IMG/VR virus record: IMGVR_UViG_3300025723_000026
Location: 12,301 to 76,300 of that record
Reading direction: 5' to 3' (one strand)
Length of the DNA: 64,000 nucleotides
From: a virus
Lineage: Duplodnaviria > Caudoviricetes
Below the pieces are notes generated by a model. That model saw only the letters and a program-made list of their open reading frames with translations, had not been told where the DNA came from and did no database searches. Shown here in pieces: positions 1,525 through 13,186 of this stretch. Within the stretch, counting starts at the first letter, position 1. Every line of letters begins with the position of its first letter. The position numbers were made by a program, and so were the translations under genes.

Positions 1525-2226
1525 TTATTCGAATTTATTTTTTAAATTAAAATATACAGATTTGCAAAGACTAAAGAATTCTCTATCTGATAAGTCCATC
1601 TTTGCCTGATTATACTGTTTTAACACCAATTGGATATTATCTTTGTGATAACCTAACTTGGAATCTATCCTATCGACCGATACTGTGCTTATCTTCGCAT
1701 CGGCACATAAAAACAACGGCTGCCCTGATAAAGCACATTTTTTATCTTGTGCATTGTATAACGTACAAATATCGTCTGGCGTAATGCTTACTTCAAGATC
1801 TCTGAGCTTAGCATTATTAATAATGTTTGTCCAAAGTCTCGCAGGTACATATTGATGTATTAATTTTGGTTGATTTTTGCGTATACCTAGTTGACGAACT
1901 CGAAGATGTATAAACTGAACAGGCTTATTGAGAGCATCGGCGCAAATTTGCGCACCATGTTTTGAATAATGATCTTTTATAAATTCATCATCTGAAACTA
2001 CATGTTGTATTCTCCATTTTTCGATGCGTTTAAGGTGGCCGCATTGTCGGCATCCCTTGCCTTTAAGGTGCCTGTAAGCATTTTGTTTAAACTGACCATG
2101 CTTGCTACATATAGCTATAATATCTTTTGTATGACCGCTGTACTTGCATAGGGAATAATCGTATAGATTACCGTGAACCGTTATAGCGTCCTTTATGAAC
2201 TGATCAGTATCATACCCTACTTTCAT
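1525..2226 (-). CDS. Free-standing homing endonuclease (Zn-ribbon N-terminus, HNH-like C-terminus)
   Basis: N-terminal HGNLYDYS..C.KHG.F.Q....HL.G.GC..C module; C-terminal CALSG...SVDRIDSKLGYHKDNIQLV...N.AK. Confidence 0.8.
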   Translation of the reverse strand: MKVGYDTDQFIKDAITVHGNLYDYSLCKYSGHTKDIIAICSKHGQFKQNAYRHLKGKGCRQCGHLKRIEKWRIQHVVSDDEFIKDHYSKHGAQICADALNKPVQFIHLRVRQLGIRKNQPKLIHQYVPARLWTNIINNAKLRDLEVSITPDDICTLYNAQDKKCALSGQPLFLCADAKISTVSVDRIDSKLGYHKDNIQLVLKQYNQAKMDLSDREFFSLCKSVYFNLKNKFE

Positions 2227-2233
2227 AAATCAG

Positions 2234-3886
2234 CTACGCCTCGCAAGAGGTGCATGCAAGAATAGAGCGCGCAAGCAACTGACTAGGATTTGCACTACGC
2301 TGATAATATAGGCTCTTTATACCTTGCTCCCACGCAAAGATAATAAGCTCATTGACATCTTTTGGTTTTGTTTCGGGTGGAATCATTAAGTTTAATGATT
2401 GACCTTGATCGATATATTTCTGCCGTGCTGCAGCTTGTATGACAATTTCTTTTTGCGAAATTTCACCAAATGTTTTAAATACATCCTTTTCTTCCTGCGT
2501 TAAAAAGTCTAAATGTTGAACCGATCCTCCATGTTTAAGAATTGATAACCAAGTATCGTCGTCGTGTTTATTTTTTTCTTTAAGAAGCTTTTTAAGGTAA
2601 GGGTTTCTATATGTAAACTTACCCTTTGCAAGATCTTTTGTATAGTACGTCGAATCGAGAGGTTCAATAGAAGGTGAGACTTGACCAAGAATAAATGATG
2701 AGGATGTAGTCGGTGCAACAGCTAGTGTCGTCGTATTTCTACGCTTATAACCTTTAAGAAGAGGTGGTTCGCCTAATAAAACCGCAAGCTGTTCAGTGGC
2801 ATGGTCCGCTTTCTCTCTAATATGCTTCCAAATTTGACCATTAAGCATTTTAGCAGTCATGGTTTCAAATCCAATCATTTTCGATTGAAGAAGCGAATGC
2901 CATCCAAGTACTCCGACACCAAGTGCTCGATGATTAACAGCGAAATTACGAGCATGTTCCATAAATTTAACACCTTCTGTTTTGATAATAAATTCTGTCA
3001 TTACAGCATCTAGGAAATAAACCAGAGTTTCAACAGCATCAGTATCTTTCCATTCATCCCAATGTAATAAATTTAAAGACGATAAATCGCAAACAAACGA
3101 TTCATCTTTTGATGAAGGTAGAAAAATTTCGCTACAAAGATTACTTGCATTAATCCTCATGTTCTTATCTTTATAGATCTGTGGTTTATTATTGTTAGCA
3201 TTATCAGTGAAAAATATATATGGATATCCAGTTTCAAAACGCTTTTGAATAATCCTACCCCAAAGCTTTCTCTTATCCTTATCACCGTCAATCATAGATT
3301 TCATCCAATCATCTGATACACACACGCCAATTGAAAGATTTTGAATTTCATCACCTTCGCCGCGAATTTTAAGAAATTCTTCAATATCTCCATGATCCAC
3401 TGGGAGATAGGCTGCAAATGATCCGCGGCGCACGTTACCTTGTGAAATGTAGTTTGTCAATGATTCAAAAACAGTTAATTGATGATGCACGCCTGTTGCC
3501 TCGCCTCCTGTAGAAATGCTAGCGCCCCGCGGCCGCACGTCACCAAAATAACCTGAAGTACCGCCTCCTACCTTCGACATGACCCCTACTTCAGCCATCT
3601 TATAGAGAATAGAATCCATATCATCTTCTATATGCGAATTAAAACATGATATCGGCATTCCACGCTTACGTCCGAAATTTGACCAAATCGGTGAACTTAA
3701 GCTGAACCATCCTCTCGAGACGTAGTCTTCAAACTTATCAGCAAACCCTTTAACACCTAGATACTTCTCAGCAATTTTAGCGATATCACTAATACGCTGT
3801 TCGGCAGTCTCACCTTCTAAAAGATAGCCTCGCTCAAGAAACTTACGCGAATCTTTGTTAAGCCAATAATATTTTTCTGTTACCAT
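2234..3886 (-). CDS. nrdA: Class I ribonucleotide reductase alpha subunit, short form without ATP-cone
   Basis: PISCF, ASNLCSEI, AVAPTTSSS, DQGQSLNL, KSLYY and C-terminal CxxC. Confidence 0.97.
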   Translation of the reverse strand: MVTEKYYWLNKDSRKFLERGYLLEGETAEQRISDIAKIAEKYLGVKGFADKFEDYVSRGWFSLSSPIWSNFGRKRGMPISCFNSHIEDDMDSILYKMAEVGVMSKVGGGTSGYFGDVRPRGASISTGGEATGVHHQLTVFESLTNYISQGNVRRGSFAAYLPVDHGDIEEFLKIRGEGDEIQNLSIGVCVSDDWMKSMIDGDKDKRKLWGRIIQKRFETGYPYIFFTDNANNNKPQIYKDKNMRINASNLCSEIFLPSSKDESFVCDLSSLNLLHWDEWKDTDAVETLVYFLDAVMTEFIIKTEGVKFMEHARNFAVNHRALGVGVLGWHSLLQSKMIGFETMTAKMLNGQIWKHIREKADHATEQLAVLLGEPPLLKGYKRRNTTTLAVAPTTSSSFILGQVSPSIEPLDSTYYTKDLAKGKFTYRNPYLKKLLKEKNKHDDDTWLSILKHGGSVQHLDFLTQEEKDVFKTFGEISQKEIVIQAAARQKYIDQGQSLNLMIPPETKPKDVNELIIFAWEQGIKSLYYQRSANPSQLLARSILACTSCEA

Positions 3887-7643: not shown

Positions 7644-7717
7644 TGGAGCGGGTAGAGAGAATTGAACTCTCGCATCAAGTTTGGTAAACTCGCAGGCTAC
7701 CATTACATCATACCCGC
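7644..7717 (-). tRNA. tRNA-Gly(ACC), rare A34 anticodon
   Basis: Gly-type body GCGGGTA/TACCCGC, U73, CCA; arm CGAGT-TTACCAA-ACTTG. Confidence 0.9.
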
Positions 7718-7900: not shown

Positions 7901-7975
7901 TGGTCGGGCACCTCGGTGCTGCCCCGAGTATTTCCTGGTCCCAAACCAGGCGGATTGCTGTCTTCCTCGTGCCCG
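7901..7975 (-). tRNA. tRNA-Pro(TGG) with atypical T-loop (GGCAGCA)
   Basis: Acceptor CGGGCAC/GTGCCCG; arm CCTGG-TTTGGGA-CCAGG; T-stem CTCGG/CCGAG; CCA. Confidence 0.85.
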
Positions 7976-8856: not shown

Positions 8857-8934
8857 TGGAGCGTCAGGTAGGATTTGCACCTACGGCTTTAGGGTTTTGC
8901 AGACCCTTCCTTTGGGCTTCTCAGGCACTGACGC
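8857..8934 (-). tRNA. tRNA-Cys(GCA)
   Basis: Arm AGGGT-CTGCAAA-ACCCT; U73; T-loop TGCAAAT; CCA. Confidence 0.9.
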
Positions 8935-9223: not shown

Positions 9224-9313
9224 TGGAGGAAGCTGAGGGATTCGAACCCTCGGAGGCGATAAAGCCTCGGTTGTTTAGTAAACAACTCTCTTAAACCGCT
9301 TGAGTAAGCTTCC
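9224..9313 (-). tRNA. tRNA-Ser(ACT), rare A34 anticodon
   Basis: Arm GTTGT-TTACTAA-ACAAC; long Ser-type variable arm; acceptor GGAAGCT/AGCTTCC; CCA. Confidence 0.9.
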
Positions 9314-9398: not shown

Positions 9399-9473
9399 TG
9401 GTCAGGAGGCTGGGATTTGCACCCAAACCGATTCTTTCACAGAGAATAATGCTACTATTACACCACAACCTGA
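9399..9473 (-). tRNA. Atypical tRNA-His(GTG)
   Basis: Arm ATTCT-CTGTGAA-AGAAT; two acceptor mismatches; A73; T-loop TGCAAAT; CCA. Confidence 0.75.
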
Positions 9474-9644: not shown

Positions 9645-9720
9645 TGGTGGCAGGAGCGGGAATCGAACCCGCAATCTTTGCGTTATGAGCGCAACGACTT
9701 AACCGTTTGTCCATCCTGCG
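9645..9720 (-). tRNA. tRNA-Met(CAT), possibly initiator type
   Basis: Loop CTCATAA; C1xC72 mismatch as in formylatable initiators, but no triple G-C anticodon stem. Confidence 0.88.
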
Positions 9721-11850: not shown

Positions 11851-11925
11851 TGGTGCGACAGGTCAGAGTTGAACTGACTTCCTTCCCGTTATGAGCAGGC
11901 CGCTCGACCGTTGAGCTTCTATCGC
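11851..11925 (-). tRNA. tRNA with CAT anticodon (elongator Met or Ile2)
   Basis: Loop CTCATAA; acceptor GCGATAG/CTGTCGC; CCA. Confidence 0.85.
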
Positions 11926-12289: not shown

Positions 12290-12381
12290 TGGTACTCCTG
12301 CCCGGTTCTGCCCCGGGATCGCGCCCTCATCTAGGACTTCTGGTGTATAAGACCAGTGTTTTACTGTTAAACTACAGGAGC
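12290..12381 (-). tRNA. tRNA-Ile(TAT) with 22-nt variable arm and atypical T-loop
   Basis: Acceptor GCTCCTG/CAGGAGT, A73, CCA; arm CTGGT-CTTATAC-ACCAG; extra hairpin GTCCT-AGATG-AGGGC; T-arm CCCGG-GGCAGAA-CCGGG. Confidence 0.82.
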
Positions 12382-12382
12382 A

Positions 12383-13186
12383 TTATGTATCTATAATAGA
12401 TTCTGAACTCGAATCATCAAGCTTTTTTCTCTGAATATTTGTATAAAGCTGTTTTAATTTACTAATAAATTCTTTAAAATACTTTTGATAGGCTGGATTG
12501 GACTTATTACGATAGAGTGTATTAATGAATCCGTTATAGTCAGATAGAAATTGTGGTACAACAACTTCAGAAATCTTTGTAGAGTTAATGAGGTTTGCTA
12601 TTGACTTGAGAAGAAGCATACGTCTGCTCTTCCAAAAGGTTCTTCCTGAACCTGATTTACTACGACGATAGAGTTCTTTTTGCTGAAGATCAATTTCGTG
12701 CAAGATTGCAGCTATCTGAACAGGGAACTCATTTTGTGCTGTATAATAATCTCTCTTACTACCTACCTTATTGCCAGCTGTTGCTTTGAGATAGGCTTCT
12801 GTTGGTTTTTTATAATTCTTAGCATGAAAAAGCTCATGCACTATCTTATTACGTTTTGTATTATTCGGTAGAGCACTATACTTTTGATAGTTTAATGAGA
12901 TAGTATCTGTTTTTCTATCATAGTCAGCATCACCAAGACTCTCGTCAAAATTGACAGATACATATGCTTTACTTTCTTTACGTTTTACCTCATCATAGTA
13001 CTTTATTGACCCCAAGATCATTGTACCGTCTTGCTGTAATCTCTTTGCATACAATTCCTTAGGATCATTATTTCCTATCACTGTAGGATTAAAGAACTTT
13101 AAGTATGTATTATATACAAGACTAACCTGTCTCTCTTCTTCATCTGAGAGAGTACTCTCTACTATAAAGGATTTAAAGGGAAGCAT
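12383..13186 (-). CDS. Hypothetical protein with HExxH (zincin-like) motif
   Basis: IVHELFH; N-terminus MLPFKSFIVE resembles capsid-targeting leaders. Confidence 0.7.
   Translation of the reverse strand: MLPFKSFIVESTLSDEEERQVSLVYNTYLKFFNPTVIGNNDPKELYAKRLQQDGTMILGSIKYYDEVKRKESKAYVSVNFDESLGDADYDRKTDTISLNYQKYSALPNNTKRNKIVHELFHAKNYKKPTEAYLKATAGNKVGSKRDYYTAQNEFPVQIAAILHEIDLQQKELYRRSKSGSGRTFWKSRRMLLLKSIANLINSTKISEVVVPQFLSDYNGFINTLYRNKSNPAYQKYFKEFISKLKQLYTNIQRKKLDDSSSESIIDT

Follow-up and report, generated by a model that had tools for sequence, protein, structure and literature searches.

AUA is the one sense codon that nearly all bacteria read only after TilS rewrites the anticodon, and phages with a UAU tRNA sidestep that rewriting; an unmodified U34 would read AUG too, a point against such a decoder. 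A gene for a tRNA of this kind, here called tRNA(UAU), lies in the window, i.e., the whole 64,000-nucleotide stretch of DNA that was analysed, which belongs to a viral contig of IMG/VR (76.3 kb, G+C of 36%, approximately 35% complete according to CheckV). The gene raises the question of which amino acid, if any, is brought to AUA by a tRNA with a second hairpin behind its anticodon arm and with a T-loop that departs from the usual sequence. The reading preferred here, to which a probability of about 0.7 is assigned, is that tRNA(UAU) is a working elongator tRNA, predicted to be charged with isoleucine and to decode AUA.

The initial annotation had reported a 92-nt UAU tRNA with intact stems, A73, CCA, a 22-nt region between the anticodon stem and the T-stem, and a GGCAGAA T-loop, all of which are present on the minus strand (Table 1). 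The gene scores 47.0 bits with the Rfam tRNA model RF00005 (gathering score, 29; E = 6.8e-7 over the whole window), and its MFE fold is exactly a cloverleaf with one additional hairpin (-30.8 kcal/mol, z = -2.15); R1, a covariance model of the two-hairpin family described below, gives it 93.8 bits, while ARAGORN makes no call at 12290-12381. The acceptor stem comprises 7 bp with G1-U72 as the top pair and is followed by U8 and A9, and the 3' end consists of discriminator A73 and a CCA encoded in the DNA. As in a canonical elongator, the four stems have 7, 4, 5, and 5 bp, and the 7-nt anticodon loop contains U33 and a purine at position 37. The canonical elbow residues (G18 G19 in the D-loop; U54 U55 C56 and A58 in the T-loop) are not found, their places being taken by A18 G19 and G54 G55 C56 A57 G58. 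The 22 nt between the anticodon stem and the T-stem are made up of the linker AA, a 5-bp hairpin, and the tail GCGAU, in which U48 would lie opposite A15 and a purine occupies position 46, residues whose presumed tertiary roles follow standard tRNA architecture. With its U-A pair opened, the additional hairpin is reduced to a stem of 4 bp that closes the 7-nt loop UAGAUGA.

Table 1. Positions in the window of tRNA(UAU), its parts, and other genes of the surrounding tRNA array
Feature	Position	Strand	Description
tRNA(UAU), whole gene including encoded CCA (12292-12290)	12290..12381	-	92 nt; Rfam, sequence, and cloverleaf MFE
D-arm	12358..12372	-	4-bp stem GUUU/AAAC, 7-nt loop AACAGUA, A at position 18, G19 kept
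Anticodon arm	12340..12356	-	5-bp stem, loop CUUAUAC, U33, A37, anticodon UAU at 12349-12347
Extra hairpin	12323..12337	-	5-bp stem GUCCU/AGGGC, loop AGAUG, GAU at 12331-12329; sequence and MFE
Tail between hairpin and T-stem	12318..12322	-	GCGAU, 5 nt; reads as a class-I-type variable loop (44-48)
T-arm	12301..12317	-	5-bp stem CCCGG/CCGGG, loop GGCAGAA (12312-12306) = G54, G55, C56, A57, G58
Upstream ORF	12383..13186	-	267 aa; stop codon ends one base before G1 of tRNA(UAU)
tRNA-Pro(UGG)	7901..7975	-	Unannotated; T-loop GGCAGCA, A18; z = -3.55
tRNA-His	9399..9472	-	A18 with T-loop UGCAAAU: G55, but U54 and A58 kept
tRNA-Cys	8857..8934	-	A18 with T-loop UGCAAAU: G55, but U54 and A58 kept

The gene is not a solitary oddity. 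Exact-pattern scans retrieve more than 60 viral-contig loci with the same D-arm and UAU loop, every one of which carries a long insert, and the search for homologues that had been suggested at the outset leads to a family of 53 distinct sequences, mostly from phages, which were gathered by scans of viral contigs, metagenomes, and genomes and aligned by covariance model. The family is found in uncultured phages and a few bacterial MAGs as well as in cultured phages of Lactobacillus; for instance, phages Semele, ENFP1, LpeD, Lpa804, and 3-521 of Lactobacillus/Levilactobacillus are carriers in which the annotated copies are labelled tRNA-Ile, and the ENFP1 copy has GAU in its extra loop. Long-arm tRNA(UAU) copies are also found in Pyrinomonadaceae MAGs. 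In two further loci, L234 (~2390-2419) and L238 (~2518-2547) of Saccharibacteria and Parcubacteria MAGs, the tRNA(UAU) seems to stop just past the anticodon, and the 5' half of a second tRNA-like sequence, again with a UAU loop, comes next; an intron or a partial copy in tandem could account for this arrangement.

Across the 53-sequence alignment, 95% of the cells are paired and changes on both sides are seen in 24 of 26 pairs, which none of 500 shuffles matches, and pairing falls to 34-54% when the 3' partners are slid along the alignment. All five helices covary, including every one of the five pairs in the anticodon stem; similarly, double changes occur at all five stem pairs of the extra hairpin, the innermost of which is usually open, leaving for the most part a 4-bp stem and a 7-nt loop. 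The anticodon loop reads CUUAUA(C/A/U) in 53/53 members, as the search patterns demanded, the discriminator is A73 in 52/53, and the tail before the T-stem has 5 nt with the consensus NNRAU in nearly all. The loop of the extra hairpin contains GAU, the ordinary Ile anticodon, in 50/53 members (typically CAGAUUA or UAGAUGA); GAC is found in L129, L007, and L012, and GAA in phage Semele. Where an anticodon loop would have U33, this loop has A, and its position 37 is not consistently a purine. The window gene shares each of these family traits, namely the UAU loop, the GAU-bearing second hairpin, the 5-nt NNRAU tail, and A73. Among 146 long tRNAs called by ARAGORN in the gathered loci, the GAU extra loop is present in 36 of 42 UAU tRNAs and in 0 of 104 Leu, Ser, Tyr, or other tRNAs, a comparison in which the 42 were pattern-selected, so that its weight lies with the control zero. 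The literature searched contains no description of a two-hairpin tRNA(UAU).

The insert had been called a class-II-like variable arm, a description that does not agree with how it is placed and built. Judged from sequence, the insert does not belong to the class II variable arms, because its hairpin stands directly after the anticodon stem, a 5-nt tail separates the hairpin from the T-stem, and the remaining body is of class I type. In the phage's own tRNAs for Leu, Ser, and Tyr, the D-stem has 3 bp, the D-loop is long, and the arm reaches nearly to the T-stem; the D-stem of 4 bp, the D-loop of 7 nt, and the tail of 5 nt in tRNA(UAU) do not fit the D-arm and arm of class II tRNAs or nev-tRNAs. 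Nor is tRNA(UAU) simply a class I tRNA whose variable loop is short, given the 17 nt of linker and hairpin that precede the 5-nt loop. Instead, two hairpins stand between positions 26 and 44, the first a textbook anticodon arm and the second resembling the anticodon arm of tRNA-Ile(GAU). The D-arm is identical in short class I tRNA(UAU) genes of CPR bacteria, which were found with a pattern that itself required this D-arm; because the family has its D-arm in common with these ordinary CPR tRNAs, the comparison points to an origin from an Ile-type class I tRNA.

Several other accounts of the insert were rejected. An 8/4 or 9/3 arrangement of the acceptor stem and T-stem is ruled out by the 7/5 pairing, which is perfect and covaries, and a recent copy of the anticodon arm of the phage's own tRNA-Ile(GAU) is ruled out by unrelated stems. 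Removal of the arm by splicing, which the initial annotation had named as a possible refutation of its account, is countered by the hairpin itself: at 15 nt and with no Rfam match it is no group I intron, and its stem covaries within the mature fold. To our knowledge, bulge-helix-bulge splicing is absent from bacteria.

The amino acid expected at AUA can be approached from the codons of the phage. AUA is heavily used, amounting to 20.5 per 1000 codons and 28% of the Ile codons of the 76-kb contig. The ORFs of the contig were aligned at codon level to related contigs, mostly L219 and L177, with subject AUA codons excluded; a profile-based codon test was set aside, as the Pfam coverage of the structural proteins in the window is too low. 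The 172 AUA sites face Ile 45 times, Val 41, Tyr 15, Leu 13, and Ser 8, and with substitution profiles taken from the same alignments the log-likelihood (lnL) is -437 for Ile, -453 for Val, and -527 for Leu, so that Val fits nearly as well as Ile. Because Ile is the best fit at these aligned sites, the proteome treats AUA as Ile, a result that reports what the proteome expects and not what the tRNA carries. A UAU anticodon, which is seen directly, in company with AUA sites that fit Ile best is what a tRNA-Ile(UAU) would present.

Alternatively, tRNA(UAU) could be an identity-mismatched tRNA in the manner of nev-tRNA-Ile(UAU), charged by LeuRS, or by SerRS through the arm, and hence inserting Leu or Ser at AUA. 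Its UAU anticodon, A73, and long extra arm together match the nev-tRNA pattern exactly, nev-tRNAs being charged only with Leu (PMC3333845), and UAU is the commonest anticodon of the SerRS-type allo-tRNAs (PMC5389517). Against such a mismatch, the D-arm (4-bp stem, 7-nt loop) is unlike those of the phage's own tRNA-Leu and tRNA-Ser and identical to that of class I tRNA(UAU), the hairpin, in contrast to the arms of class II, stands before a complete variable loop of 5 nt, and the acceptor and T-stems are 7/5 rather than 8/4 or 9/3. Reading AUA as Leu is 90 lnL units worse than reading it as Ile, and Ser faces AUA at 8/172 sites. Moreover, the sequence of the extra loop is conserved, though we know of no requirement for it by bacterial LeuRS or SerRS. 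A mismatched identity is therefore very improbable, and the earlier suggestion of Leu insertion at AUA/AUG is not supported, in view of the class-I-type D-arm, the normal 5-nt loop behind the hairpin, and the far poorer fit of the AUA sites to Leu.

A use for the second hairpin can be proposed, albeit tentatively and with more doubt than confidence: as a detached identity element, it might offer IleRS a GAU loop while the UAU arm decodes. The A at its position-33 equivalent would bar the ribosome from using the GAU loop. IleRS binds the anticodon arm itself, and therefore this proposal needs the two hairpins to swap places under the D-stem. They could alternate in stacking there: the first hairpin, coming after position 26, is canonical on its 5' side, and the second is canonical on its 3' side, where a normal 5-nt variable loop comes next. 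The GAC and GAA variants of the family count against the proposal. If true, tRNA(UAU) would be a natural tRNA in which the synthetase's anticodon and the ribosome's anticodon are physically apart, and charging directed by the GAU hairpin would amount to a new way of splitting identity from decoding as well as a ready-made design for tRNA engineering.

The second departure from a standard tRNA concerns the elbow, and here the possibility of a decaying pseudo-tRNA, with its D-loop and T-loop mutated, has to be weighed. ARAGORN rejects the gene, and G18 is changed together with three near-universal T-loop bases. However, all stems are intact at an Rfam score of 47 bits, and the pattern of change within the family is orderly. 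The D-loop reads AACGGUA in 46/53 members and AACAGUA in 5/53, and its state is matched in the T-loop, with G55 in all five A18 members and U55 in all 48 G18 members. The A18 members have the T-loop GGCAGAA in the window, L177, and L223, and UGCGAAU in L129 and L222. The three GGCAGAA copies differ at 7 positions, 6 of which form three compensatory pairs (6:67, 29:41, and 30:40) and the seventh of which lies in the tail. Because 6/7 differences are compensatory and none breaks a stem, purifying selection is read to act on the fold of these copies, and decay is close to refuted.

The coupling of D-loop and T-loop recurs in many tRNAs and tmRNAs, which likewise speaks against decay. Among the unique ARAGORN tRNAs of all gathered loci, an AG D-loop occurs with G55 in 18 and a GG D-loop with U55 in ~600, apart from a handful of tRNAs, some of them due to errors of parsing. 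When a scan is anchored on the A18 D-arm alone, G55 T-loops appear in 10 of 11 distinct tRNAs; when it is anchored on the T-arm alone, the informative tRNAs and tmRNAs all have A for the first G of the D-loop GG, in a 15-mer scan whose matches are mostly due to chance in GC-rich contigs, the AT-rich ones (tmRNAs and a few tRNAs) alone being informative. GGCAG T-loops also occur, always with A18, in tRNAs of six other anticodon types (Pro, Val, Gly, Ala, Asp, and Thr).

The GGCAGAA T-loop is accordingly half of a matched redesign of the elbow and not a product of decay, as far as comparison of sequences can tell. tRNA(UAU) has the A18/G55 combination with G19-C56 kept, and G54/G58 in addition. 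In the predicted geometry the redesign would be isosteric and would keep the G19-C56 platform, G18/pseudouridine-55 being swapped for A18/G55 and U54/A58 for G54/G58, with the sites for m5U54 and pseudouridine-55 gone; because the swap is matched and G19-C56 is kept, the L-shape would be preserved. The replacement of three near-universal T-loop residues by G54, G55, and G58 counts against a working decoder, and we know of no demonstration that a tRNA with these residues functions on the ribosome. The elbow may have been rebuilt for the loss of TrmA and TruB target sites or for escape from enzymes that recognise the UUC loop. In the literature searched, no natural A18/G55 elbow is described. 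The A18/G55 and G54/G58 pairs would imply that tRNA positions regarded as universal are exchangeable together, and that a rebuilt elbow takes away the sites on which two near-universal modification enzymes, TrmA and TruB, act.

The same design is present elsewhere in the array. The tRNA-Pro(UGG) with a GGCAGCA T-loop is the only Pro tRNA in the array, and it further has G8/G14 in place of U8/A14, i.e., a G-G replaces a second reverse-Hoogsteen U-A position. The gene is missed by ARAGORN, and by Rfam even at E <= 10; blastn among the gathered loci gives no match for it, and a pattern scan finds a homologue in L242 (6976-7047) that differs by two compensatory acceptor-stem pairs. The tRNA-His and tRNA-Cys genes show a partial version of the design (Table 1). 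Overall, 2 of the ~24 tRNA genes of the window are missed by ARAGORN because of their rebuilt elbow, one of them by Rfam as well; since standard finders miss such tRNAs, phage tRNA sets are under-counted.

The design is also found in tmRNA. In L219, the tmRNA (2133-2578, plus strand) has the T-loop GGCAGUA and A for the first G of the D-loop GG, while the tmRNA of the window (~22584-21935, split by a group I intron) has canonical GG and UUCGA; tmRNAs thus switch between the two elbow designs among orthologues. The consensus T-loop of the Rfam alpha_tmRNA family (RF01849) is GGCgGUA. A tmRNA was considered as the donor of the T-arm of tRNA(UAU) and rejected; because the T-loop of the window's own tmRNA is canonical, there is no local donor.

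Two further observations belong with these RNAs. In L129, a bacterial class A RNase P RNA (2590-2867, minus strand; Rfam, 143 bits) lies inside a phage tRNA array with many A18/G55 tRNAs, which may thus be served by an RNase P RNA that the phage itself supplies. L017, L030, L032, L059, L060, and other viral contigs of ~46-52% GC share a tRNA-like unit of ~165 nt that is closed by an acceptor-like helix of 7 bp and has a T-arm with GGCAGAA, with CCA or CAA past the discriminator.

A rebuilt T-loop would also suit a tRNA look-alike that works outside decoding, e.g., as a decoy or replacement that counters a defence nuclease which cuts tRNAs, or as an amino-acid carrier for a phage enzyme, the altered loop keeping the RNA off the ribosome or host enzymes. 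The UUC/pseudouridine T-loop is indeed absent from tRNA(UAU), and ARAGORN and Rfam both miss some rebuilt-elbow genes. However, the T-loops of 48/53 family members are ordinary, so the family as a whole looks translational, and the anticodon loop is fully canonical and invariant. The occurrence of the GGCAG design in the phage's only tRNA-Pro argues for use in decoding, and the retained G19-C56 pair is the elbow platform used by the ribosome and RNase P. A role as look-alike is accordingly considered unlikely, if somewhat less so than a mismatched identity.

The genomic setting is that of a phage tRNA array. tRNA(UAU) is found at one end of a minus-strand array of ~24 tRNA genes that are interleaved with HNH and other homing endonucleases and adjoined by ribonucleotide reductase genes. 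The ORF immediately upstream has no family in Pfam or PHROGs; a homologue with 72% identity in L219 is likewise upstream of a tRNA(UAU), and the ORF and tRNA(UAU) are probably co-transcribed. A megablast search of cultured phages with the 2-kb neighbourhood of tRNA(UAU) gives no match, i.e., there is no close cultured relative, and blastn with the tRNA itself gives just a chance-level match to crAss-like tRNAs. The array also carries a tRNA-Ile(GAU) and two CAU tRNAs. The first of these (9645-9720, minus strand), called Met(CAU), has a C1-C72 mismatch, A11, and an anticodon stem without the three G-C pairs, and from these sequence features it looks initiator-like. The second (11851-11925, minus strand; Rfam, 50.5 bits) is missed by ARAGORN, has a G-A mismatch as the first anticodon-stem pair, and could be an elongator Met tRNA or tRNA-Ile2. 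The array includes, in addition, tRNA-Gly(ACC) at 7644-7717 and tRNA-Ser(ACU) at 9224-9313 (both minus strand), whose A34 anticodons are unusual for bacteria-type tRNA sets. No TilS domain is encoded in the 76 kb of this ~35% complete contig, and TilS or tRNA-Ile2 could lie elsewhere.

In the preferred reading of a working, isoleucine-charged decoder, RNase P would release tRNA(UAU) from the transcript of the array, the tRNA would accept Ile, and its genomic UAU anticodon would read AUA without the lysidine (TilS) step, adding for an AT-rich phage to an AUA reader that is scarce in the host. In this account we infer the expression of the tRNA, its charging with Ile, any modification of U34, and the part played by the GAU hairpin. 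The initial annotation had offered a TilS-independent AUA decoder as one of its two options, and this prediction is consistent with the canonical UAU loop, the compensatory conservation, the location in a tRNA array, and the heavy, Ile-like use of AUA.

Compared with known systems, tRNA(UAU) has likenesses to several of them. The nematode nev-tRNA-Ile(UAU) is derived from tRNA-Leu, keeps the Leu-type D-arm and V-arm tip, and is charged with Leu (Hamashima et al. 2012, PMC3333845); it has UAU, a long extra arm, and A73 in common with the phage tRNA, whereas the latter has a class-I-type body, an arm located elsewhere, and Ile-like AUA sites. The allo-tRNAs of Acidobacteria and phages, with 8/4 or 9/3 acceptor and T-stems, Ser identity, and a predominance of UAU (Mukai et al. 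2017, PMC5389517), likewise combine a long extra arm with UAU but differ from tRNA(UAU) and its 7/5 stems; GAU has 0 occurrences in the main text of that paper (PMC5389517). The alphaproteobacterial tmRNAs (RF01849) and phage tmRNAs (L016-L041 and L219) resemble it in the GGC(A/G)G T-loop, the same stem context, and A in place of the first G of the D-loop GG, although the design resides there in tmRNAs and here in ordinary tRNAs. The functional analogue is the TilS-independent class I tRNA-Ile(UAU), or tRNA-Ile3, of Mycoplasma mobile, Bifidobacterium, Neorickettsia, and lactic acid bacteria (bioRxiv 10.1101/614032; references 44-45 of PMC9976931). Both tRNAs have UAU in the gene for AUA and would need no lysidine; tRNA-Ile3 is an ordinary class I tRNA, to which the tRNA(UAU) of the window adds a conserved second hairpin and a rebuilt elbow.
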